Shown piece after piece: positions 2,417-44,445 of a stretch of DNA of 64,000 nucleotides. Each line of letters starts with the position of its first letter. Position 1 is the first letter of the stretch. Below the pieces are notes generated by a model that was not told the origin of the DNA, searched no databases, and worked only from the letters and a program-made list of their open reading frames with translations. Origin of the DNA: Escherichia phage vB_EcoM_G9062; the sequence record NC_054920.1. One strand, given 5' to 3'. The position numbers and the translations under genes were made by a program.

Positions 2417-2447
2417 AATTATACCACATCCTTGTGGTAAAGTAAAC
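2417..2447 (-). promoter_or_regulatory. T4-type early promoter
   Basis: minus-strand GTTTAC (2447-2442), 18 nt spacer, TATAAT-like (2423-2418). Confidence 0.5.
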
Positions 2448-4267
2448 TACTGGCTCATCCATTCTTTACGAAGGTCAGCATTATCTCCCATGAGCATTTC
2501 AAAAAGCTCTTTCCAGTTCTCAGGAAGTTTAACAACATCATATACTGGGTTTTGAATCATCTCACGATATTCAGATTTTTCCAAAGAGCCAAGTCCTTTA
2601 ATATAACGGATGCTATGTTTAGGTAGAGCATCTTTGGCACTCTCATATTCAGCGACTGTATAAAACCATTCTTGTTTTTTACCAATCTGAGCGATGATTA
2701 CAGGAGTTTTGACAAAACGAATTCGTCCTTGCTCAAACAATTCTGGCCAATTACTAAAAAATCCAAGCAGAGAAGGATAAATGCTTCCTAGACCATCATG
2801 GTCAGCATCAGTCATAATAGCAATATTATGATAATTCAAGTTTTCAGCTTTTTCACCGAGAACTAATCCAGTGATTGCGCAAATATCAAATAGTTCTTTG
2901 TTTTTAAGCATATCTGCATAAGACATACCCCAACTGTTGAGAACTTTACCGCGCAATGGATAACCACCGTGAAGTTCTTTATCACGAACATCAATAAGAT
3001 ATCCGATAGCCGAATCACCCTCAGTCAAGAAAAGAGTAGTGTCAGCATCTTTACCACAAAGATTCGCTTTGATATGTTTATGAACCTTAGCTTTAGAAGC
3101 CTTTTTAGCTGCTTTAGTTTCTGCTGCTTTTTCTGCCGCCAATTTACGAGCCAAAGCAGCTTCAATAATCGGCATTAGAATTGCTTCATTATTTAGAATA
3201 GCACGTGAAATCTTTTTAGCATCAAGCTGAATATGACTACGAATTTCGCCAAATGGAGAAGTCAAACGCTCTTTAGTTTGAGAATCAAATCGCATGTTTT
3301 TCATATCACGAACAAACATAACGATAGTCAAACATTCTTTAACACGCGCTTTAGTTACATCAATTTTGAACTTACGTTTGATTTGTGGAATAAGGTCTTC
3401 ACAAATATCATCCATAACACAGTCAATGTGATGGCCACCATTCTTAGTGTGAATGTTATTGACGTATGTTAATTGACGAAAACCATCCGGTGAACGACCA
3501 ACCGCAATAGAACAATTTTCTTGTTCTTGAACAATAGCATGCTCATCATATTGGCGTGCATATTTCTTAAAATTGCCCTGAACCTTTTTACCATTAAAGG
3601 TAAATTGAATATCAGGATAAACAACAGCAAGTGTCTGGAGACGATCTAATGTAATGTCAAGATAAACTTGAGATAATTCATTAGTTTCAAATGACATAAA
3701 ATCTGGAATGAAAGTAACACGAGTTCCTTTCCATTTTCCAGGAATAGTTTCCCATGATTTATTTTCCATGCCATTTGAACAACGAACTACAATATTATTT
3801 TGACCATCGCCAGTTTCACCGACAAACATCACAGAAAAAATGTTAGTTAAACTAGAACCAACACCATTCATACCACCGGTGACGCGTTCTTTATCATCAC
3901 CAAAGTTACCACCTGCTTTTGGAATAGTCCACGCAGCAACTGGACCAGGAATTTCTTCACCGGTAGGTGTTTTGACCATCGCTTGTGGAATACCACGACC
4001 GTTATCTTCAACTGTTACTTGATTGTTTTTAATAGTAACATTAATTTTATTTGCGAATTTAAACTTAGTACGAATACCTTCATCTACTGAGTTATCGATA
4101 ATTTCATCAATAAGCTTAACAAGACCAGGTACATACTGAACACTTTCCCATTTACCAAACAGAAAGCGCTCATGCATTTCATTAGCGGAAGAGCCAATGT
4201 ACATGCCGCTACGCTTTTTGATATGTTCAATATCGCTCAGAATTTTAATTTCATTCTTAATCATCAC
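2447..4267 (-). CDS. 39: DNA topoisomerase II large subunit, contiguous GyrB-like ATPase (606 aa)
   Basis: N-terminal GHKL ATPase motifs (GMYIGS, DNGRGIP), GyrB-like C-terminal half; single uninterrupted ORF. Confidence 0.9.
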   Translation of the reverse strand: MMIKNEIKILSDIEHIKKRSGMYIGSSANEMHERFLFGKWESVQYVPGLVKLIDEIIDNSVDEGIRTKFKFANKINVTIKNNQVTVEDNGRGIPQAMVKTPTGEEIPGPVAAWTIPKAGGNFGDDKERVTGGMNGVGSSLTNIFSVMFVGETGDGQNNIVVRCSNGMENKSWETIPGKWKGTRVTFIPDFMSFETNELSQVYLDITLDRLQTLAVVYPDIQFTFNGKKVQGNFKKYARQYDEHAIVQEQENCSIAVGRSPDGFRQLTYVNNIHTKNGGHHIDCVMDDICEDLIPQIKRKFKIDVTKARVKECLTIVMFVRDMKNMRFDSQTKERLTSPFGEIRSHIQLDAKKISRAILNNEAILMPIIEAALARKLAAEKAAETKAAKKASKAKVHKHIKANLCGKDADTTLFLTEGDSAIGYLIDVRDKELHGGYPLRGKVLNSWGMSYADMLKNKELFDICAITGLVLGEKAENLNYHNIAIMTDADHDGLGSIYPSLLGFFSNWPELFEQGRIRFVKTPVIIAQIGKKQEWFYTVAEYESAKDALPKHSIRYIKGLGSLEKSEYREMIQNPVYDVVKLPENWKELFEMLMGDNADLRKEWMSQ

Positions 4268-16209: not shown

Positions 16210-17549
<1,340 letters not shown>

Positions 17550-21960: not shown

Positions 21961-22323
21961 TTAAAAGAATTTAAACTTTTTCTTTGACCTTTTATTAAAT
22001 GCATCTTGTAGTTGCATTGTAATACATTTTTCTACATGAGGAGCTAACTCAGCTTTTCTTTCTTGGTCAAGAACAGCAAAGTCCATTACGACTTTTCCAT
22101 CAACCCAATCTAATTTTGTCACATACACAATGTGTGTAGAACCATCTTCTAGTTTAATGACAATCTCCTGGATAACATTTTCCATGGCAGATTTAATTAT
22201 CTTAAGAGATTCATTAAAAAGACGTTCTTTTCTTTCTTCTTCCCCCTCCGAAGAGGGGGATTCATCGATAATTTCTAGATCTAAGTCTAAATCATCTTTA
22301 TTCATTAAATTCTTCCATATCAC
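21961..22323 (-). CDS. 40: gp40-like protein (120 aa)
   Basis: size and position between 41 and uvsX. Confidence 0.55.
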   Translation of the reverse strand: MIWKNLMNKDDLDLDLEIIDESPSSEGEEERKERLFNESLKIIKSAMENVIQEIVIKLEDGSTHIVYVTKLDWVDGKVVMDFAVLDQERKAELAPHVEKCITMQLQDAFNKRSKKKFKFF

Positions 22324-23479
22324 TTAACTGTTCGAGGTCAGTTTCTAAATCAGCAGCTGATTTACTTTTACTTTCTGGAGATTTAAATTTTTCAACCTTT
22401 GAGTTAATCAATTCATCAACTTCAGCTTCAACAATTTCATTACTATCAATAGCACCTAACTGATAAGCACGTTTAATAGCATCTCGGAATGGTTGATGCT
22501 TAAATAAAGGACCCCAGAATGTAGTGCAATTGGTATCTTTTGCACGCCAAGATTTTTCTTCGCGAATCATCTCGCCGGTTTCTTCATCAAGAAATTCACG
22601 AGCATACCAGCCATTTTTAGGTTTTACCACAAATCCTAATTCAAGAGCCATATCTAACAATCCAGAATAAGGATCGATGCCACCGTCAAATTTAACATCA
22701 ATAAAGAATTTACTTTTTTCTTTAACGGTACGAGATTTTTCTACATTTAGAACAAATTGATACCCCTGAAGATCAGAACCATCTTTAATCTGGCGCTTAC
22801 CGATAATGAATACAGTATCAGCCGAATACATTACGCCTGTACCACCTGTCATCACGGTTTTACTAAACATTTCAATTGTTTCAATTGTATGGTTAACCGC
22901 AACACATGGAATGTTTTTAATACTAAAATAAGGAGTAACAATACGGAATAATGACTTCAGTGATTTAGCACGAGTCATATCTGCCACAGATTTTTCATTC
23001 AAGGCATCTTCCGTTTCTTTCTTAGAAGCCATATTACCAATTGAGTCGATGAATACTATAACCTTTTCACCACGCTCAATAGCTTCAAGCTGATTCACCA
23101 TATCAATTTTCAGCTGTTCAACTGATTGAATTGGCGTATGAATTACACGTTCCGGGTCAACTCCCATGGATCGCAAATAAGCTGGAGTAATACCAAATTC
23201 GCTATCATAGAATAGACAAACCGCGTCAGGATATTTGTTCAAATATGCCGCAACCATAGTCAAAGACATATTTGATTTAAAGTGTTTAGAAGGCCCTGCG
23301 AAAATAGTTAAACCAGACTGCATACCGCCATCAATCGCACCAGAAATAGCAATATTAAGCATTGGAATTTTTGTACGAATTACATCCTTTTCATTAAAGA
23401 ATTTAGATGTAGTCAGTTCAGCAGTCATTTTAGAAGTGGAAGCTTTAATCAAACGGGATTTTAAATCTGCAATAGACAT
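22298..23479 (-). CDS. uvsX: UvsX recombinase, RecA-like (393 aa)
   Basis: N-terminus MSIADLKSRLIKASTSKMTAELTTSKFFNEKD as T4 UvsX; RecA-fold motifs. Confidence 0.9.
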   Translation of the reverse strand: MSIADLKSRLIKASTSKMTAELTTSKFFNEKDVIRTKIPMLNIAISGAIDGGMQSGLTIFAGPSKHFKSNMSLTMVAAYLNKYPDAVCLFYDSEFGITPAYLRSMGVDPERVIHTPIQSVEQLKIDMVNQLEAIERGEKVIVFIDSIGNMASKKETEDALNEKSVADMTRAKSLKSLFRIVTPYFSIKNIPCVAVNHTIETIEMFSKTVMTGGTGVMYSADTVFIIGKRQIKDGSDLQGYQFVLNVEKSRTVKEKSKFFIDVKFDGGIDPYSGLLDMALELGFVVKPKNGWYAREFLDEETGEMIREEKSWRAKDTNCTTFWGPLFKHQPFRDAIKRAYQLGAIDSNEIVEAEVDELINSKVEKFKSPESKSKSAADLETDLEQLSDMEEFNE

Positions 23480-23556
23480 TCATTTTTTCCATAGGCATCA
23501 TTATATTTTCCTCACTGGTTAAAGATAGAGTAATTATAACACAATAAATTTAGGCA

Positions 23557-24405
23557 TTAATCAACTGCTATTGGATGAATAGCATTAAACTTATGAAATG
23601 CTTCTGATTTTTCTTTACGCGAAACGCACATGCGAAGAACCTTTAATGGCTCGTCTTCTTCACCCAACGATTTTCGTTTTTCAATATTAGAAGTTTTCCA
23701 ACGAGCTTGCTCTGGAAACTCTCTATTGATTTGCTCAAGCGCTCTATTATGTTTAGAATTACTACGAATTGAACTACACCCGCCAGGAGCTTGTGCTTTT
23801 CCAGATACAACTAGATATTTGAACAAGGCCAAATGCGGATAACCTTGATTAATTAAATTGAGAAATGCATACATATCTTCGCATAAATCAATTTTTCCAT
23901 ACCCAATTTGTTCTGTCGTAAGTTTTCCGAGGTCATACCATGTATTCGTGAATCCATATGAATTTTCACGATAATTACCCCAAGATGAAGTAATTTTAAA
24001 AATTGATAGACGAGCATGACCGTGATAATACCCGCAATCCATGGCATCTTCAACATATTGAATCAATTCATAGAACTGTTCACGAGTTAATTGATTAATT
24101 TTATCTACGCGCCGTTTATCGTCTCTCTTTCGTATTGAACTCATACGGATAGTAGTATCATCGTCAATCATCCAGATTCGTTGACCTGCATACATATCAG
24201 TAATTGCTTTACGAGTACCGGCAATTCCATTAACATCATCAGGAATAGTTACAATTTTAGCTCTAGACCCATAGGCATCATAATAAGCTTTTTCTTCGTG
24301 TTCACGCACTATAATATGCGGTTCATAATCAGTCGGAAACATATCAAGGGCAGAAACTGCCCCGACACGTTGATAACTTGGAATTACGAATTGAATCATT
24401 TCCAC
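23557..24405 (-). CDS. GT-A-fold glycosyltransferase (282 aa) at the beta-gt locus
   Basis: N-terminal FVIPSYQR strand and IDDD (DxD) motif typical of GT2-like enzymes; lies between uvsX and 42. Confidence 0.6.
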   Translation of the reverse strand: MEMIQFVIPSYQRVGAVSALDMFPTDYEPHIIVREHEEKAYYDAYGSRAKIVTIPDDVNGIAGTRKAITDMYAGQRIWMIDDDTTIRMSSIRKRDDKRRVDKINQLTREQFYELIQYVEDAMDCGYYHGHARLSIFKITSSWGNYRENSYGFTNTWYDLGKLTTEQIGYGKIDLCEDMYAFLNLINQGYPHLALFKYLVVSGKAQAPGGCSSIRSNSKHNRALEQINREFPEQARWKTSNIEKRKSLGEEDEPLKVLRMCVSRKEKSEAFHKFNAIHPIAVD

Positions 24406-25136
24406 TCACCTTTATAGTCTTTTTTCACAATATGAGTTTCGCCAGTATTCCACCAATGATCAACCAAATAAAAATGACGAGAATATACATGAAGACTTCC
24501 AACATTCCATATAATAGAACCTGCTTTATACTGACGAGTTGAATCGCCTGCATTCAAATCAGATACTAATTTATCTAATACGTATTTTTGCCATGCATAA
24601 TCATTACGGAATCCGAAGACCACGTCATTTGAGCGCATGCTTACTACCGCATTGACTTTCTTATCACGAATCAAGTACTGTACTGTATTAGTACACATGA
24701 AATCTGACATACCATCTTTATTGTAGTCAAATTGCATGGATGGACGAGTATAAATCATGATACCACGTCGAGAATCAGGATTTTGACCAAGTTCAGCTAA
24801 ACACATATCATACTGGGCATAGTTATCTTCTGACCAGATAGCCCAACCATAATTCGAGTTAATTTCGCCTTTAGAAGATGCTACCTGCTGCCAAATCTTT
24901 GGTGTTTCACCTGGAATATCTTTAACAAACAAGCTCTTAGATTTATACCATTCAAGTTCACGCTGAATGTATTCATCATTAAGAGCGCCAAAAATAAACG
25001 GTTCATCTGCTACAAATGATGCGCCAATAATTTCAATAGTTTTAACACCAGTTTTATCAACTACGAAATCTTTTTCTTTTAATGCAAGCCCCAAATGAAG
25101 ACGGATTTCTTCAACTGTCATAGAGTCACTAATCAT
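24396..25136 (-). CDS. 42: dCMP hydroxymethylase gp42 (246 aa)
   Basis: 246 aa; thymidylate-synthase-like. Confidence 0.9.
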   Translation of the reverse strand: MISDSMTVEEIRLHLGLALKEKDFVVDKTGVKTIEIIGASFVADEPFIFGALNDEYIQRELEWYKSKSLFVKDIPGETPKIWQQVASSKGEINSNYGWAIWSEDNYAQYDMCLAELGQNPDSRRGIMIYTRPSMQFDYNKDGMSDFMCTNTVQYLIRDKKVNAVVSMRSNDVVFGFRNDYAWQKYVLDKLVSDLNAGDSTRQYKAGSIIWNVGSLHVYSRHFYLVDHWWNTGETHIVKKDYKGEWK

Positions 25137-25143
25137 TTAAACC

Positions 25144-25293
25144 TCAATTGATACATTCATATTTAACTTGTAACAGTAATAAACTCCAACCTAAAATAAT
25201 AGTTGGAATCATAAGAGGAACCGTTACACTATAGTATATACTTATTATAATCATCAAGATTAAAAGCAACACTGCTATAATTTTGCTTTTCAT
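25144..25293 (-). CDS. small membrane peptide (49 aa), not in ORF track
   Basis: my translation MKSKIIAVLLLILMIIISIYY...; ATG overlaps imm stop (ATGA). Confidence 0.4.
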   Translation of the reverse strand: MKSKIIAVLLLILMIIISIYYSVTVPLMIPTIILGWSLLLLQVKYECIN

Positions 25294-25541
25294 TCCTTCT
25301 CTCTGATGATAATTACCTGATTTGGTTGTGCAGACTTTTTAGTTTCACCCGCAATTGACCAAATAAATGTAATAAACCAACCAATAATTGACCAGTTAAA
25401 CAGTAAAGATGTGAAAAAGATTCCTACTGTCGATTTTGACCCACGCATCAAAGCAATAAACCATGGAAGCATGTATATAATAATAGCCAACACGCCTGAA
25501 ACTAAAACCATAAAAATTGAACCTGCTACTAAAGTTTCCAT
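25290..25541 (-). CDS. imm: superinfection immunity membrane protein Imm (83 aa)
   Basis: 83 aa, two hydrophobic helices, position between 43 and 42. Confidence 0.85.
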   Translation of the reverse strand: METLVAGSIFMVLVSGVLAIIIYMLPWFIALMRGSKSTVGIFFTSLLFNWSIIGWFITFIWSIAGETKKSAQPNQVIIIREKE

Positions 25542-34823: not shown

Positions 34824-35839
34824 TGTGTTGCCTCTACATATAGCTGATTTGCATATTGAATAAGTGCTTCACGGTCAGAATCAGTGATGTCTGGAATTGC
34901 ATTAATATACTCTTCCATTAATGTCTGAAGCGATTGGACTTCAACTTCTTCACTGTCATCTGACTCGACAGAGTTATCAATCTTTGACACAACTCGTAAT
35001 GAATGCACAACTTTCTCTAGTTCAGATTCAAACTTCGTCAGATTTTTGTCTACTTCAGTTACTATAACACGTACTGATAGATTTGTAAAATCTTTATAGT
35101 CAATTTTTCCTTTAAATGGATAATGAATTCTACGATGCCAGGTAGTATTGTTTGGAATAAATTCCATTCGTTCTGTTTCTGTATCAAACATCCAGAACCC
35201 GCGAGGGTCATTCTCGTCACCTGCAGTTAGTGTCCATGGTGTCCCAATATATCTGACGTTAGCAGCCTCAGAGATAGTATGGAAGTGACCAGACCACACT
35301 TCTTTATAAGTCTTAAGGAAATCAGGTTCAAGACCATGAGATTTCATTCCTTTATAAAAATAAAATCCATTCAGTTCCCAGTGACCAACACAAAAAGAAG
35401 CAGATGAAGTTTTGATGTGTTCAAGAATTTCACCAGTATTTTCTTCACACATCCAAGGAATTAAATCAATCAAACATCCGTCAAAATCTACTGTAGTAGG
35501 CTTATCATACACTTTAACATTATGATATTTAGCCAAAAGCTCAGTAGAAGCATTTGGATGCATTACATTTTTGTAGTGGAGATCGTGATTTCCTACAATA
35601 GTATGTAATGTGATTCCAGCGTCATCAAGCATTTGAACTATTTCACGGGCAAACTCCATAGTTTTATGTGTAATTGCTTTTCGCACATCAAAGATATCAC
35701 CATATTGAATCCATACAGTAATTCCATTTTTCTTAGAATATTCTATCGCTTGCTTAATTCCATCAATTTGAATACCGCGAATCCACTCATCATCAGCTTT
35801 AACGCCTAAATGCCAATCACCCAAGTTTAGTATTTTCAT
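34820..35839 (-). CDS. 47: recombination nuclease subunit gp47, Mre11/SbcD-like (339 aa)
   Basis: phosphoesterase motifs DWHLG, GDIFD, GNHD, GHWE. Confidence 0.9.
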   Translation of the reverse strand: MKILNLGDWHLGVKADDEWIRGIQIDGIKQAIEYSKKNGITVWIQYGDIFDVRKAITHKTMEFAREIVQMLDDAGITLHTIVGNHDLHYKNVMHPNASTELLAKYHNVKVYDKPTTVDFDGCLIDLIPWMCEENTGEILEHIKTSSASFCVGHWELNGFYFYKGMKSHGLEPDFLKTYKEVWSGHFHTISEAANVRYIGTPWTLTAGDENDPRGFWMFDTETERMEFIPNNTTWHRRIHYPFKGKIDYKDFTNLSVRVIVTEVDKNLTKFESELEKVVHSLRVVSKIDNSVESDDSEEVEVQSLQTLMEEYINAIPDITDSDREALIQYANQLYVEATQ

Positions 35840-36440
35840 GGTGTCTTTTCCATCCTAATTTAGCTGCTTTTGAAACCAGTTCTTTAATTTTTCCTTTTGT
35901 CCATTCAGGACCAGGAGGTTCATGACATAACATTTGCTTAACTCCGTTATTATACCATTTTTTACCTTTATTATGTGATGAAGCTTTAAATTTATTTGAC
36001 CTTCCTTTTACATAACCTTCTGGAATATAAGGCAAAAAGGCAGATTTTCCTGTTAATGGATCATGTGAATGTATATTTCCTTTACAATTATGAGAACCAT
36101 ATAATGGATGATTTTGTCCTTTATTATCTCTTCCAAATGAACCTTTTGGAGCAGCATATGACATATTAAAGAATAATGGATTTTTAACTGCATCATGCAA
36201 TCGTTGATAATATAACTCGCATTTAATAGCTTCTTCACGCGTATCAAATTCAGCTAAAATGCATGAATCAAATAAGTGAGGATTATCTGAAAGCTCTTTA
36301 TTATAAATTTTCTTATACTTTTTAGATAAAACTGAGCCATGATATCCAGCTAAATGCCTATCTAAAGACGTAGATCCAATATAAAAAGGAGGAAGTTTAT
36401 CTCCGCTATATATTGTTAAATAAGTTATATATTTTTTCAT
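35817..36440 (-). mobile_element. GIY-YIG homing endonuclease-like gene (207 aa)
   Basis: N-terminal KYITYLTIY...PFYIGST and CILAEFDTREEAIKCE (GIY-YIG core); Lys/His-rich DNA-binding tail; overlaps gene 47 start by 23 nt. Confidence 0.65.
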
Positions 36441-36600: not shown

Positions 36601-36618
36601 AAAGGGCCGAAGCCCTTT
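36601..36618 (-). terminator. hairpin downstream of alpha-gt, C(UUCG)G loop
   Basis: plus aaagggccgaagcccttt. Confidence 0.5.
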
Positions 36619-37819
36619 ATTTTGTAATAATGTCAAACTGTTCTTTAAAGCAGAAGCTTGAATCTTGATGTTGATACAAAAATTCATATGCTTTTTCTCG
36701 CTCACGGTCATAAAGAGCTCGGTCAGATGACAGTTCTTTAATACGTTCAAACGTTGATTCCATATCATTTTCATCAAACCAAATGATACCGCTATCATGC
36801 GAGGTCAAAGGAGTATTATCAACACGGAATTTTAAATTTTCGCCAGTAGATTTCCAAAATACCGGAATTGTTCCACATGCACCAAGCTCGAGATGAGTAT
36901 ATTCTAAAGAACGTTGTAGATATTTTTTGTCCAACTTACTCAGCTGATAACCAAAACCGGATTTACTCATGCGTTCAAGCATTTCGCTATTTACATAACG
37001 GTCAAGAATTTGCGTTGGCAAATTAGGAGCAATTTTAATTTGGTCTACTTGATGAAGACGATAATACTCGTATGGAATTCCCTTTTCTTTAATAGGAATG
37101 AACGCTGGAGAACGTTCCAGACCTTCCATAATAGTACTTAGTCCTGCAGGTTTAAGATGTTTTTCATGAAAATCAAACATCTGATAAAAACCTTTCCATG
37201 TAGTCGTACGACCAATCCAACGGTTGATATTCATGTTAATTTCAGAAACATCTTTCCAGTAGGTTGACCGAACCTTCGCAATATCCATAGGAGGCTGAAA
37301 GTTATATACTGTCGGTGCTTCTTCAATATCATCAAACAGAGAAACAGTTTCTGGATACCATTCTTTCATCAGAACTTTATTAAAATCACCATTATCAGAA
37401 TGACTAAAAATAACATCAGCTCGACGAACAGTTTCTTCTAATCCCAAATTTCGACGCAAAGAAAGAGAAGAATGGTCATGTTGATAAACTACAACACGAA
37501 CAGAAGGTTTAATGTTATCAATAATTTTTTTATAGTTATTAATAGTGTCTTCTTCAACCGAAGTAGCAGGAACTGAATTGATAATTAGAATATCACAATC
37601 ATTTACTAGCTTAAGTGTTTTATCATATTCTTTTGCCAATAAAACCGGAATTGAAAATGATTTATAATCATGCGCGCAATTACGAGTAAATGATTTATCT
37701 TTAGCATAAACCAAAGTTACTTCATGACCATTTTTAATAAACCAATCACGTTGCTCGAGTGAGAATTTTGTTACACCACAACCTTCAAGACCTCGAGCCA
37801 TAAAAATACATACTTTCAT
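36617..37819 (-). CDS. agt: DNA alpha-glucosyltransferase (400 aa)
   Basis: 400 aa; N-terminus ICIFMARGLEGCGVTKFSLEQRDWF as T4 alpha-gt. Confidence 0.9.
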   Translation of the reverse strand: MKVCIFMARGLEGCGVTKFSLEQRDWFIKNGHEVTLVYAKDKSFTRNCAHDYKSFSIPVLLAKEYDKTLKLVNDCDILIINSVPATSVEEDTINNYKKIIDNIKPSVRVVVYQHDHSSLSLRRNLGLEETVRRADVIFSHSDNGDFNKVLMKEWYPETVSLFDDIEEAPTVYNFQPPMDIAKVRSTYWKDVSEINMNINRWIGRTTTWKGFYQMFDFHEKHLKPAGLSTIMEGLERSPAFIPIKEKGIPYEYYRLHQVDQIKIAPNLPTQILDRYVNSEMLERMSKSGFGYQLSKLDKKYLQRSLEYTHLELGACGTIPVFWKSTGENLKFRVDNTPLTSHDSGIIWFDENDMESTFERIKELSSDRALYDREREKAYEFLYQHQDSSFCFKEQFDIITK

Positions 37820-42160: not shown

Positions 42161-42631
42161 TTAATCATGTTTCCACACCCCATCGGTATTTGACCAAAGT
42201 CGCTGATTATCTGATCCTCGCCACAGCTTTTTAGTCGGAAGATTTTTCTCATACTTCCCATCAATAATAACATCAACATATTTAAGCATTTCTAGCTGTT
42301 TAATATCTTCAAACTTATATCCTGTCCACAACCAAATGCTTTTATTGGGATAAAGATTTTTAATAGTTTGAACCACAGAGTGAATCACGTCTCTGTTATC
42401 AGGATAAAGAGGGTCACCTCCGGTTATAGTTAATCCTTCTATATAATCATTATTCAAACATTCAATCAATTGTTCTAGCGTTTCACCAGTGAATGGAATA
42501 CCATTTCTAGCATTCCATGTTGATTTATTATAACACCCTTCACATTTATGCAAACAACCTGTAACGAAAAGAACGACCCTGCAACCAGGGCCATTCACAA
42601 AATCACAAGGATAAAATCTATCATAATTCAT
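42161..42631 (-). CDS. nrdG: anaerobic ribonucleotide reductase activase NrdG, radical SAM (156 aa)
   Basis: 156 aa; Cys-rich radical SAM region CDFVNGPGCRVVLFVTGCLHKCEGCYN. Confidence 0.9.
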   Translation of the reverse strand: MNYDRFYPCDFVNGPGCRVVLFVTGCLHKCEGCYNKSTWNARNGIPFTGETLEQLIECLNNDYIEGLTITGGDPLYPDNRDVIHSVVQTIKNLYPNKSIWLWTGYKFEDIKQLEMLKYVDVIIDGKYEKNLPTKKLWRGSDNQRLWSNTDGVWKHD

Positions 42632-44445
42632 TGATGCTTAACCCTATGCATGATTTCTTTATTTTTACCGAGATTAAATCCGCGTTCGTTCGGGTTTCCA
42701 AGATATCCGCATGTTCTTCTTATTGTGTTCATCTTTTTAGGATCAGTTTCTCCACAAATAGAACAAACAAATCCGTTTTCAGTAGGAGTCATTTCATGGG
42801 TACTTCCGCATGTAAAACACTTATCTACTGGCATGTTAACACCAAAATAATCTAAATGTTGTACAGCATAATCCCATACAGCCTCAAGACCTTTTAGGTT
42901 ATTTTTCATATCAGGAAGTTCAACATAAGAAATGTGACCACCTGTCGCAATGAAATGATATGGCGCTTCACGAGAAATTTTTTCAAACGGAGTAATATTT
43001 TCTTCTACTGAAACGTGGAAACTATTAGTGTACCAGCCTTTATCGGTAACATCTTTTACACTTCCATATTTTTCTGTATCAAGTTTACAGAAGCGATAAC
43101 AAAGGTTTTCAGCAGGAGTCGAATATAAACTAAAAGCAAATCCAGTTCTTTCAGTCCACTGTTTAAGATGAGCATTCATTTTAGTTAAAATTTCTTGTCC
43201 AATATCACGACCGACAAGAATATTCAATTCGTGAATACCAATGTATCCTAGGGACACTGAACTTCTGCCGTTTTTAAATAACTCAATTATGTCATCATCA
43301 GGTTTAAGACGAACCCCGAATGCACCTTCTTGGTAAAGAATAGGAGCTACAGTTGCTTTAACACCCTTTAAAGAACTAATTCTACGCATCAAGGCTTCAA
43401 AGCACAGATCCATTCGTTCATTAAATAGCTCAACAAATTTCTGTTCATTGAACTGTGTTCCAATATAAGAATCTAATGCGATACGAGGAAGATTCAGTGT
43501 TACAACACCGAGATTATTACGTCCATCAAGAATTTCATTACCAGTCGAATCTTTCCATACGCTCAAGAAACTACGGCAGCCCATCGGAGAAACAGGAATA
43601 GATGAACCAGTGATAGCTTTATTGTTCTTAGCTGAAATAATATCAGGATACATCCTTTTGCTTGCACACTCTAGAGCAAGCTGCTTAATATCATAGTTCG
43701 GATCGTCTTTATAAAGATTAACACCTTCTTCAACGAACATAACAAGCTTAGGGAAAATAGGAGTTATCCCATCACGACCGAGACCTTTAATACGATTTTT
43801 CAGAATTGCTTTCTGAATCATTCGTTCAGTCCAGTCAGTTCCCGTACCAAATGTAATTGTTACAAAAGGTGTTTGCCCGTTTGAACTAAAGAGAGTATTT
43901 ACTTCATATTCATAAGCTTGAAATGCATCGTATACGTCTTTTTCTGTTTTAGATTGAGCATAATTCAACGCATCGGCGATTTGCCATTTTTCTGCATCCT
44001 CAATATGTTTTGCATAGGTGCGTTTAACATAAGGAGAAAGTACTTTATCTACATTCGCAAAAGTCGTTCCGCCGTATTGGTGAGAAGCAACCTGTGCAGT
44101 AATTTGTGCCATAATTGCAGTAGCAACGCCAATTGATTTAGGAGTTTCAATCTGTGCATTACCAAGCTTAAATCCGTTCTCAAGCATTCCTTTTAAATCT
44201 ACTAAACAGCAATTAGTAAATGGAAGAGCAGGGGAATAATCAATATCATGGAAATGAATAATTCCGCTTTCATGCGCTTTCATAATAAAAGACGGGACCA
44301 TATTTTTGGCAATGTGTTTAGACACAATACCAGCCATAAGGTCCCGTTGAGTTGGAAAAACACGAGAATCTTTATTAGCATTCTCGTTTAAAAGGTCTTT
44401 ATTAGTTTTATGAATCAATCCTTCAATTTCTTTTTCAATTGTCAT
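42628..44445 (-). CDS. nrdD: anaerobic ribonucleoside-triphosphate reductase NrdD (605 aa), uninterrupted
   Basis: 605 aa; C-terminal zinc ribbon CFTCGS...CSICG and glycyl-radical motif RRTCGYLG; ATGA overlap with nrdG. Confidence 0.95.
   Translation of the reverse strand: MTIEKEIEGLIHKTNKDLLNENANKDSRVFPTQRDLMAGIVSKHIAKNMVPSFIMKAHESGIIHFHDIDYSPALPFTNCCLVDLKGMLENGFKLGNAQIETPKSIGVATAIMAQITAQVASHQYGGTTFANVDKVLSPYVKRTYAKHIEDAEKWQIADALNYAQSKTEKDVYDAFQAYEYEVNTLFSSNGQTPFVTITFGTGTDWTERMIQKAILKNRIKGLGRDGITPIFPKLVMFVEEGVNLYKDDPNYDIKQLALECASKRMYPDIISAKNNKAITGSSIPVSPMGCRSFLSVWKDSTGNEILDGRNNLGVVTLNLPRIALDSYIGTQFNEQKFVELFNERMDLCFEALMRRISSLKGVKATVAPILYQEGAFGVRLKPDDDIIELFKNGRSSVSLGYIGIHELNILVGRDIGQEILTKMNAHLKQWTERTGFAFSLYSTPAENLCYRFCKLDTEKYGSVKDVTDKGWYTNSFHVSVEENITPFEKISREAPYHFIATGGHISYVELPDMKNNLKGLEAVWDYAVQHLDYFGVNMPVDKCFTCGSTHEMTPTENGFVCSICGETDPKKMNTIRRTCGYLGNPNERGFNLGKNKEIMHRVKHQ

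Follow-up and report, generated by a model that had tools for sequence, protein, structure and literature searches.

The gene lying between gene 42 and uvsX in the 64,000-nucleotide stretch of DNA analysed here (hereafter the window) very probably encodes a beta-glucosyl-HMC-alpha-glucosyltransferase of the T2/T6 type (ggt, also called ba-gt, g-gt or TAGT; PF20691), and with the same high confidence hmC, alpha-glucosyl-hmC and alpha-gentiobiosyl-hmC are predicted to occur together in the phage DNA, without beta-glucosyl-hmC. The identity of the gene, its locus, the fold of its product, the conservation of its motifs and its partner genes come from the present analysis. The reaction and its effects on defence are taken from published work on T2/T6 enzymes 96-97% identical to the window protein and on related environmental phages, and the roles of individual residues we infer. 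A ggt gene at this locus is ordinary for Tequatrovirus, already known and carried by hundreds of phages, and the proposals of the original prediction for this gene have already been published. The coding sequences concerned are the following.

22298..23479, minus strand: uvsX, downstream of ggt (PF21134 and PF00154)
23557..24399, minus strand: ggt (ba-gt, TAGT), predicted beta-glucosyl-HMC-alpha-glucosyltransferase, 280 aa plus stop (PF20691, PHROG 842; orthologs in T2, RB18 and e11/2 at 96.5-99.3% identity)
24396..25136, minus strand: gene 42, dCMP hydroxymethylase, upstream of ggt (PF00303, E=1.1e-15; gp42 annotated in relatives)
36617..37819, minus strand: a-gt, DNA alpha-glucosyltransferase, which makes the acceptor alpha-glucosyl-hmC; 400 aa, intact (PF11440 over the full profile, E=1.8e-237)

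The original prediction placed a protein of 282 aa at 23557..24405, flanked by uvsX and gene 42. Both the minus-strand reading frame and its neighbors are present, the N-terminus reading MEMIQFVIPSYQR with RIWMIDDDTTI further in, but the length of 282 aa is counted from the GTG given in the ORF list. Codon 3 of this frame is an ATG, at 24399. Since the annotated orthologs compared (843 nt each) all start at the equivalent of this ATG, which overlaps the stop of gene 42 as ATGA and is preceded by the Shine-Dalgarno-like AAAGGTGAG, the protein is most likely 280 aa long, and the GTG at 24405, two codons further out, is the less likely start. The stop/start overlap also suggests that gene 42 and ggt may be translationally coupled.

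Around gene 42, ggt and uvsX the T-even block follows the usual arrangement (gp41, gp40, imm, imm.1 and gp43). The GC content of ggt (0.34-0.37) matches that of its neighbors, and there is thus no sign of recent foreign acquisition. In scans of 23300..25500 the promoter-like sites numbered 13, with 11.3 expected, and a single terminator-like site was found where 1.4 were expected; neither is better than chance, and we therefore make no regulatory claim for this interval. Inside ggt, at 24347..24363 on the minus strand (codons 13-18), there is a GC-rich hairpin of 7 bp, GGGGCAGTTTCTGCCCT, with a T-rich run after it; the T6 copy is nearly identical, but such sites occurred at chance frequency in the terminator scan and we claim no function for the hairpin. 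Two plus-strand reading frames within ggt (23630..23842 and 24181..24417) are unsupported and were treated as spurious. No Rfam family attained its gathering score anywhere in the window.

The family assignment of the ggt protein is clear from profile searches. Its sole Pfam match at E≤1 is PF20691, 'TET-associated glycosyltransferase' (TAGT), with E=4.9e-10 and 40.1 bits against a cut-off of 27.5, spanning profile positions 2-205 of 205. A search of this kind, put forward as a way to reveal a non-glycosyltransferase fold, thus returned a glycosyltransferase family instead. PHROG 842 (phrog_842), labelled 'beta-glucosyl-HMC-alpha-glucosyltransferase', is matched with E=4.6e-88. When 50,697 phage records were searched with tblastn, 687 had a match to the ggt protein, 469 of them at an identity of at least 95%, and about 200 records at 60-80% identity belong to T4-like phages of Klebsiella, Enterobacter and Salmonella. 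T2 and RB18 show 96.5% identity over 100% of the length and e11/2 shows 99.3%; in RB18, T2, T6 and e11/2 the gene is likewise flanked by gene 42 and uvsX. Near-identical, full-length and at a shared locus, the window gene is an ortholog of the one encoding the T2/T6 enzyme, which bears out the suggestion of a second sugar as in these two phages. The T2/T6 gene was reportedly first cloned by Winkler and Rueger (NAR, 1993).

The window protein and that of T2 differ by nine substitutions (positions 11, 30, 50, 89, 95, 97, 101, 132 and 251), and seven of these (30, 50, 89, 95, 97, 101 and 132) are seen again in the comparisons with RB18 and T6 (MH550421). Against e11/2 there is a single substitution, P132S, private to the window relative to e11/2 and a15. 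The 10-kb neighborhood of ggt has 98-99% DNA identity to many Tequatrovirus genomes. In most genomes of this genus the combination of alpha-gt and TAGT is standard (PMC13216743, PMC13390438, PMC11078745), and the combination of alpha-gt and beta-gt found in T4 is a rare exception, present in 6 of 753 genomes (PMC13216743). The idea that this phage decorates its DNA differently from T4 is supported, but not as a peculiarity of the phage.

In T4 the interval between gene 42 and uvsX holds the 351-aa beta-gt and the GIY-YIG homing endonuclease segA, and the location of TAGT is syntenic with that of T4 beta-GT (PMC13390438, AEM 2026). The synteny comparison agrees with the earlier description of the site as the beta-glucosyltransferase locus. 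With T4 beta-gt as the tblastn query against the whole window the best match had E=1.3, at an unrelated position, and segA gave no match to the window at 1e-3; we accordingly rejected a hidden beta-gt remnant or a segA-type endonuclease at the ggt locus. Likewise, the ggt protein has no match at E≤1 to PF09198, the family of T4 beta-gt, and does not show the GT-B fold with its two Rossmann domains. The two enzymes have in common their syntenic position downstream of gene 42 and the transfer of a beta-linked glucose from UDP-glucose to modified phage DNA (PMC13216743). They differ in fold (GT-B in T4 beta-gt, GT-A as modelled for ggt), share no sequence similarity, and act on different acceptors, hmC itself in the case of T4 beta-gt and alpha-glucosyl-hmC in that of ggt. 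In addition, segA adjoins the T4 gene, whereas the window locus is without it.

The fold was examined by structure prediction. A database search gave 11 relatives of the ggt protein, from 97% down to 27% identity, and their alignment, in which IPSYxR and DDD are invariant (DDD in 10 of 10 sequences), was fed to AlphaFold2. Confidence in the resulting model is moderate overall (mean pLDDT 72.8, pTM 0.77); its N-terminal beta/alpha half is confident, and the loops at residues 131-150 and 194-210 are poorly defined. Foldseek searches with the model retrieved AvpGT, WrtF, RmlT, TarP/TarS and K4CP with a probability of ~1.0 and TM values of 0.4-0.46. On this model the ggt protein is a GT-A (nucleotide-diphospho-sugar transferase) fold, the type that the original prediction had proposed. 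A PDB sequence search with the ggt protein gave only chance-level matches (E>1), and accordingly no member of the TAGT family has a solved structure. The published model of T6 TAGT is also GT-A, and TAGT forms a sister group to GT2 (PMC13216743). To the cellular inverting GT-A enzymes of GT2 (BcsA, TarP/TarS, K4CP, GlfT2, RmlT and AvpGT) the relationship of ggt is structural only, with 8-18% identity, and no match to Pfam Glycos_transf_2 at E≤1 places the protein within GT2 at the level of sequence. The acceptor of the GT2 enzymes is a lipid, a polymer or a teichoic acid, that of ggt a sugar on duplex DNA, and the C-terminal 70 residues of ggt are without counterpart among the matches.

Conservation was assessed in an alignment of 153 sequences, namely the window protein and 152 relatives of 240-340 aa. 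Four elements stand out, all on the minus strand.

24367..24390: FVIPSYQR, residues 4-11, first beta-strand of the Rossmann-like nucleotide-sugar-binding half, ending in R11 (strand E3-7 in the model; I6 in 93% and P7 in 91%)
24157..24165: D79-D80-D81, the DxD motif, at the end of strand E74-78 (family conservation)
23875..23880: E174-D175 (CED), candidate catalytic base (D175 invariant, at the start of helix H174-184 in the model)
23764..23784: G206-G207-C-S-S-I-R212 (GGCSSIR), invariant glycine pair plus arginine in a low-confidence, probably mobile loop

The FVIPSYQR and IDDD motifs noted earlier are not due to chance, given that R11 is found in 151 of 153 representatives (the other two having gaps) and D79, D80 and D81 in 151, 153 and 148, respectively. 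D175 is present in all 153, while G206, G207 and R212 occur in 152, 153 and 149. The window protein keeps every one of these near-invariant residues. By analogy with GT2 enzymes, the FVIPSYQR strand may have a role in UDP binding, and the three aspartates most likely hold a divalent metal and the diphosphate of UDP. GT2 enzymes use a TED/ED catalytic base, and both the spacing of CED and the ED motif in the ggt protein are similar; D175, 94 residues past the DxD motif, is thus a likely candidate for the general base of an inverting GT-A enzyme. The GGCSSIR loop, overlapping a segment (residues 194-210) with pLDDT below 50, may by the same analogy act as a lid closing over the substrate.

The enzyme of T2 and T6 belonging to PF20691 adds glucose to alpha-glucosylated hmC (PMC13216743), namely a beta-1,6-linked glucose from UDP-glucose, yielding gentiobiosyl-hmC (PMC13216743, PMC11078745, PMC13160076). 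The window has the partners required to make this acceptor, gp42 and a-gt, both intact. The a-gt product, whose integrity had been part of the original argument, shows 91.5% identity with that of T4 and 100% with several Tequatrovirus orthologs. In the predicted pathway, gp42 would produce hydroxymethyl-dCMP, with hmC entering the DNA at replication; the alpha-glucosyltransferase would attach an alpha-linked glucose to hmC in the DNA; and the GT-A enzyme encoded by ggt, with UDP-glucose as the donor, would place a beta-1,6 glucose onto the first one to give gentiobiosyl-hmC. The last enzyme would have to be an inverting transferase, since it turns an alpha-linked donor into a beta-linked product. 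Besides their locus, the T2/T6 genes have in common with that of the window the length of 280 aa, the invariant motifs, the alpha-gt partner and the GT-A fold.

It is conceivable that the ggt enzyme is active but catalyzes a different reaction, either acting directly on naked hmC, and so functionally replacing beta-gt, or using another sugar donor or linkage. TAGT homologs may accompany alpha-GT or beta-GT or stand alone (288 of 753 genomes; PMC13216743), so the family as a whole must include other specificities, and its diversity (a profile search through 1.84 billion representative proteins gave 2147 ggt relatives at E≤0.001, of which 748 remained at E≤1e-10) points the same way. Such divergence is, however, to be expected in homologs below 65% identity rather than in the window protein, which is nearly identical to T2/T6 enzymes of known product and is accompanied by the same alpha-gt partner. 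Moreover, HPLC/MS of environmental Tequatroviruses that have the same gene pair, alpha-GT and TAGT, shows hmdC, alpha-glucosyl-mdC and alpha-gentiobiosyl-mdC, and the beta-glucosyl form was not detected in them (PMC13390438). We regard a different reaction as scarcely credible, and favor the T2/T6-type transfer onto alpha-glucosyl-hmC.

In those environmental phages the ratios of hmdC, alpha-glucosyl and gentiobiosyl forms are ~1:2:2, or about 1/3 hmdC and 2/3 gentiobiosyl (PMC13390438). The 259-aa reading frame at 16210..16989 (minus strand) of the window is the counterpart of a Dam-family adenine methyltransferase annotated in e11/2, and in the Durham collection the Tequatroviruses with a Dam-like gene are the group with the ~1:2:2 ratio of hmC, alpha-glucosyl and gentiobiosyl forms, an association that is probably coincidental. 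In T2 and T6 gentiobiosyl-hmC amounts to ~5% and ~72%, respectively, with near-identical enzymes (PMC13390438, PMC13160076, PMC11078745), and the extent of gentiobiosylation is for this reason not predictable from sequence.

The deposited T2 and T6 genomes differ from the window in ggt itself. In every deposited T2 genome, and in SV76, the family-invariant arginine is replaced (R11H), whereas the window has R11 (codon 11, 24367..24369). Among 676 phage records the exact 28-aa N-terminus with H11 was seen in only 8, from T2 or SV76 in every case. In T6 the gene has a lesion in both of the independent genome records, a different one in each, and the window has neither. Positions below are those of the gene in the compared locus.

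AP018813, 3007..3849, plus strand: T2 gene with H11
LC348380, 3295..4137, minus strand: T2 gene with H11
MH751506, 3286..4128, minus strand: T2 gene with H11
MH550421, 3138..3980, minus strand: T6 gene with an amber at position 10 (CAG to TAG), annotated from M20, 261 aa
AP018814 (RefSeq NC_054907), 3135..3974, minus strand: T6 gene with a 3-nt deletion turning DDD into DD, 279 aa

Given the RefSeq lesion, the T6 TAGT reference used in the literature is therefore the DD allele.

That lesioned alleles exist in nature or in the laboratory (T2 R11H, the T6 amber and the T6 DD form) raises the question of whether the window gene could be another weak or inactive one, leaving phage DNA with essentially only alpha-monoglucosyl-hmC and free hmC. 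The one change that could speak for this is P132S, where the near relatives all have P. However, position 132 is variable in the family alignment (R in 70 sequences, T in 15, P in 14, A in 11 and S in 10) and falls in a low-confidence loop of the model. As the site is not conserved across the wider family, a functional effect of P132S seems unlikely, and we rejected this substitution as a functional change for want of support. The reading frame is also full length, the residues R11, D79-81, D175, G206, G207 and R212 are all intact, and so are the ATGA coupling to gene 42 and the Shine-Dalgarno-like sequence upstream. A weak or inactive allele is in our view very improbable, and a functional T2/T6-type enzyme remains the preferred reading.

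As a hypothesis only, R11H in T2 might explain the low gentiobiosyl-hmC level of this phage relative to T6. More generally, the gentiobiosyl-hmC fraction might be set by the enzyme allele, the low level of T2 being caused by its lineage-specific R11H, a possibility that we consider rather doubtful. If it were true, the R11 allele of the window would predict a T6-like genome with high gentiobiosyl content, and sensitivity to Brig1 and to BapA/Brig3-type defences would be tunable by exchanging a single residue. This proposal concerns the gene family, with nothing unique to the window and no sign of new chemistry.

The original prediction also held that the second sugar would alter sensitivity to modification-dependent defence, and such effects are documented in published T6 work for Brig1 and BapA/Brig3. 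DNA of T6 delta-ba-gt, taken to carry only alpha-glucosyl-hmC, is sensitive to Brig1 in vitro, and deletion of the gene increases the Brig1 sensitivity of T6 in vivo (PMC11078745). Similarly, T6 delta-g-gt DNA becomes a substrate of the glucosyl hydrolase BapA, which is unable to act on gentiobiosyl-hmC (PMC13160076). Enzymes of the GmrSD/BrxU type are also relevant to modified Tequatrovirus DNA (PMC13390438). The ggt gene of the window represents no new biology, its function having been tested genetically in T6; its value lies in annotation, in that the predicted modification bears on the susceptibility of the phage to modification-dependent defences and probably also on CRISPR nucleases and restriction enzyme cutting. 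A comparable logic, in which a second sugar diversifies the modification against host defences, is seen in Mosigvirus/RB69-like phages with Aat arabinosyl-transferases (mono- and di-arabinosylated cytosines; PMC13216743, PMC13390438), although these place arabinose on 5-hydroxy-dC (PMC13390438) and so differ from ggt in both sugar and base chemistry.

Elsewhere, the window and its close relative e11/2 do not have the same set of mobile endonucleases. A 207-aa reading frame at 35817..36440 (minus strand), between gene 47 and a-gt and overlapping the start of gene 47, has a weak, below cut-off match to GIY-YIG (PF01541, E=3e-4) and a strong one to phrog_10820 ('HNH endonuclease'); it resembles a free-standing, seg-like homing endonuclease. 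This frame is absent at the corresponding e11/2 site and is found at an identity of at least 95% in about 66 phage records. Gene 39 (topoisomerase large subunit; 2447..4267, minus strand) is an uninterrupted 606-aa reading frame, whereas that of e11/2 is split by MobE. At 42161..44445 (minus strand) nrdG directly abuts nrdD, a contiguous 605-aa reading frame with no group I intron by Rfam, whereas e11/2 has SegH between the two genes. The differences from e11/2 at gene 39 and at nrdG-nrdD are typical of the homing-endonuclease mosaicism of T-even phages.
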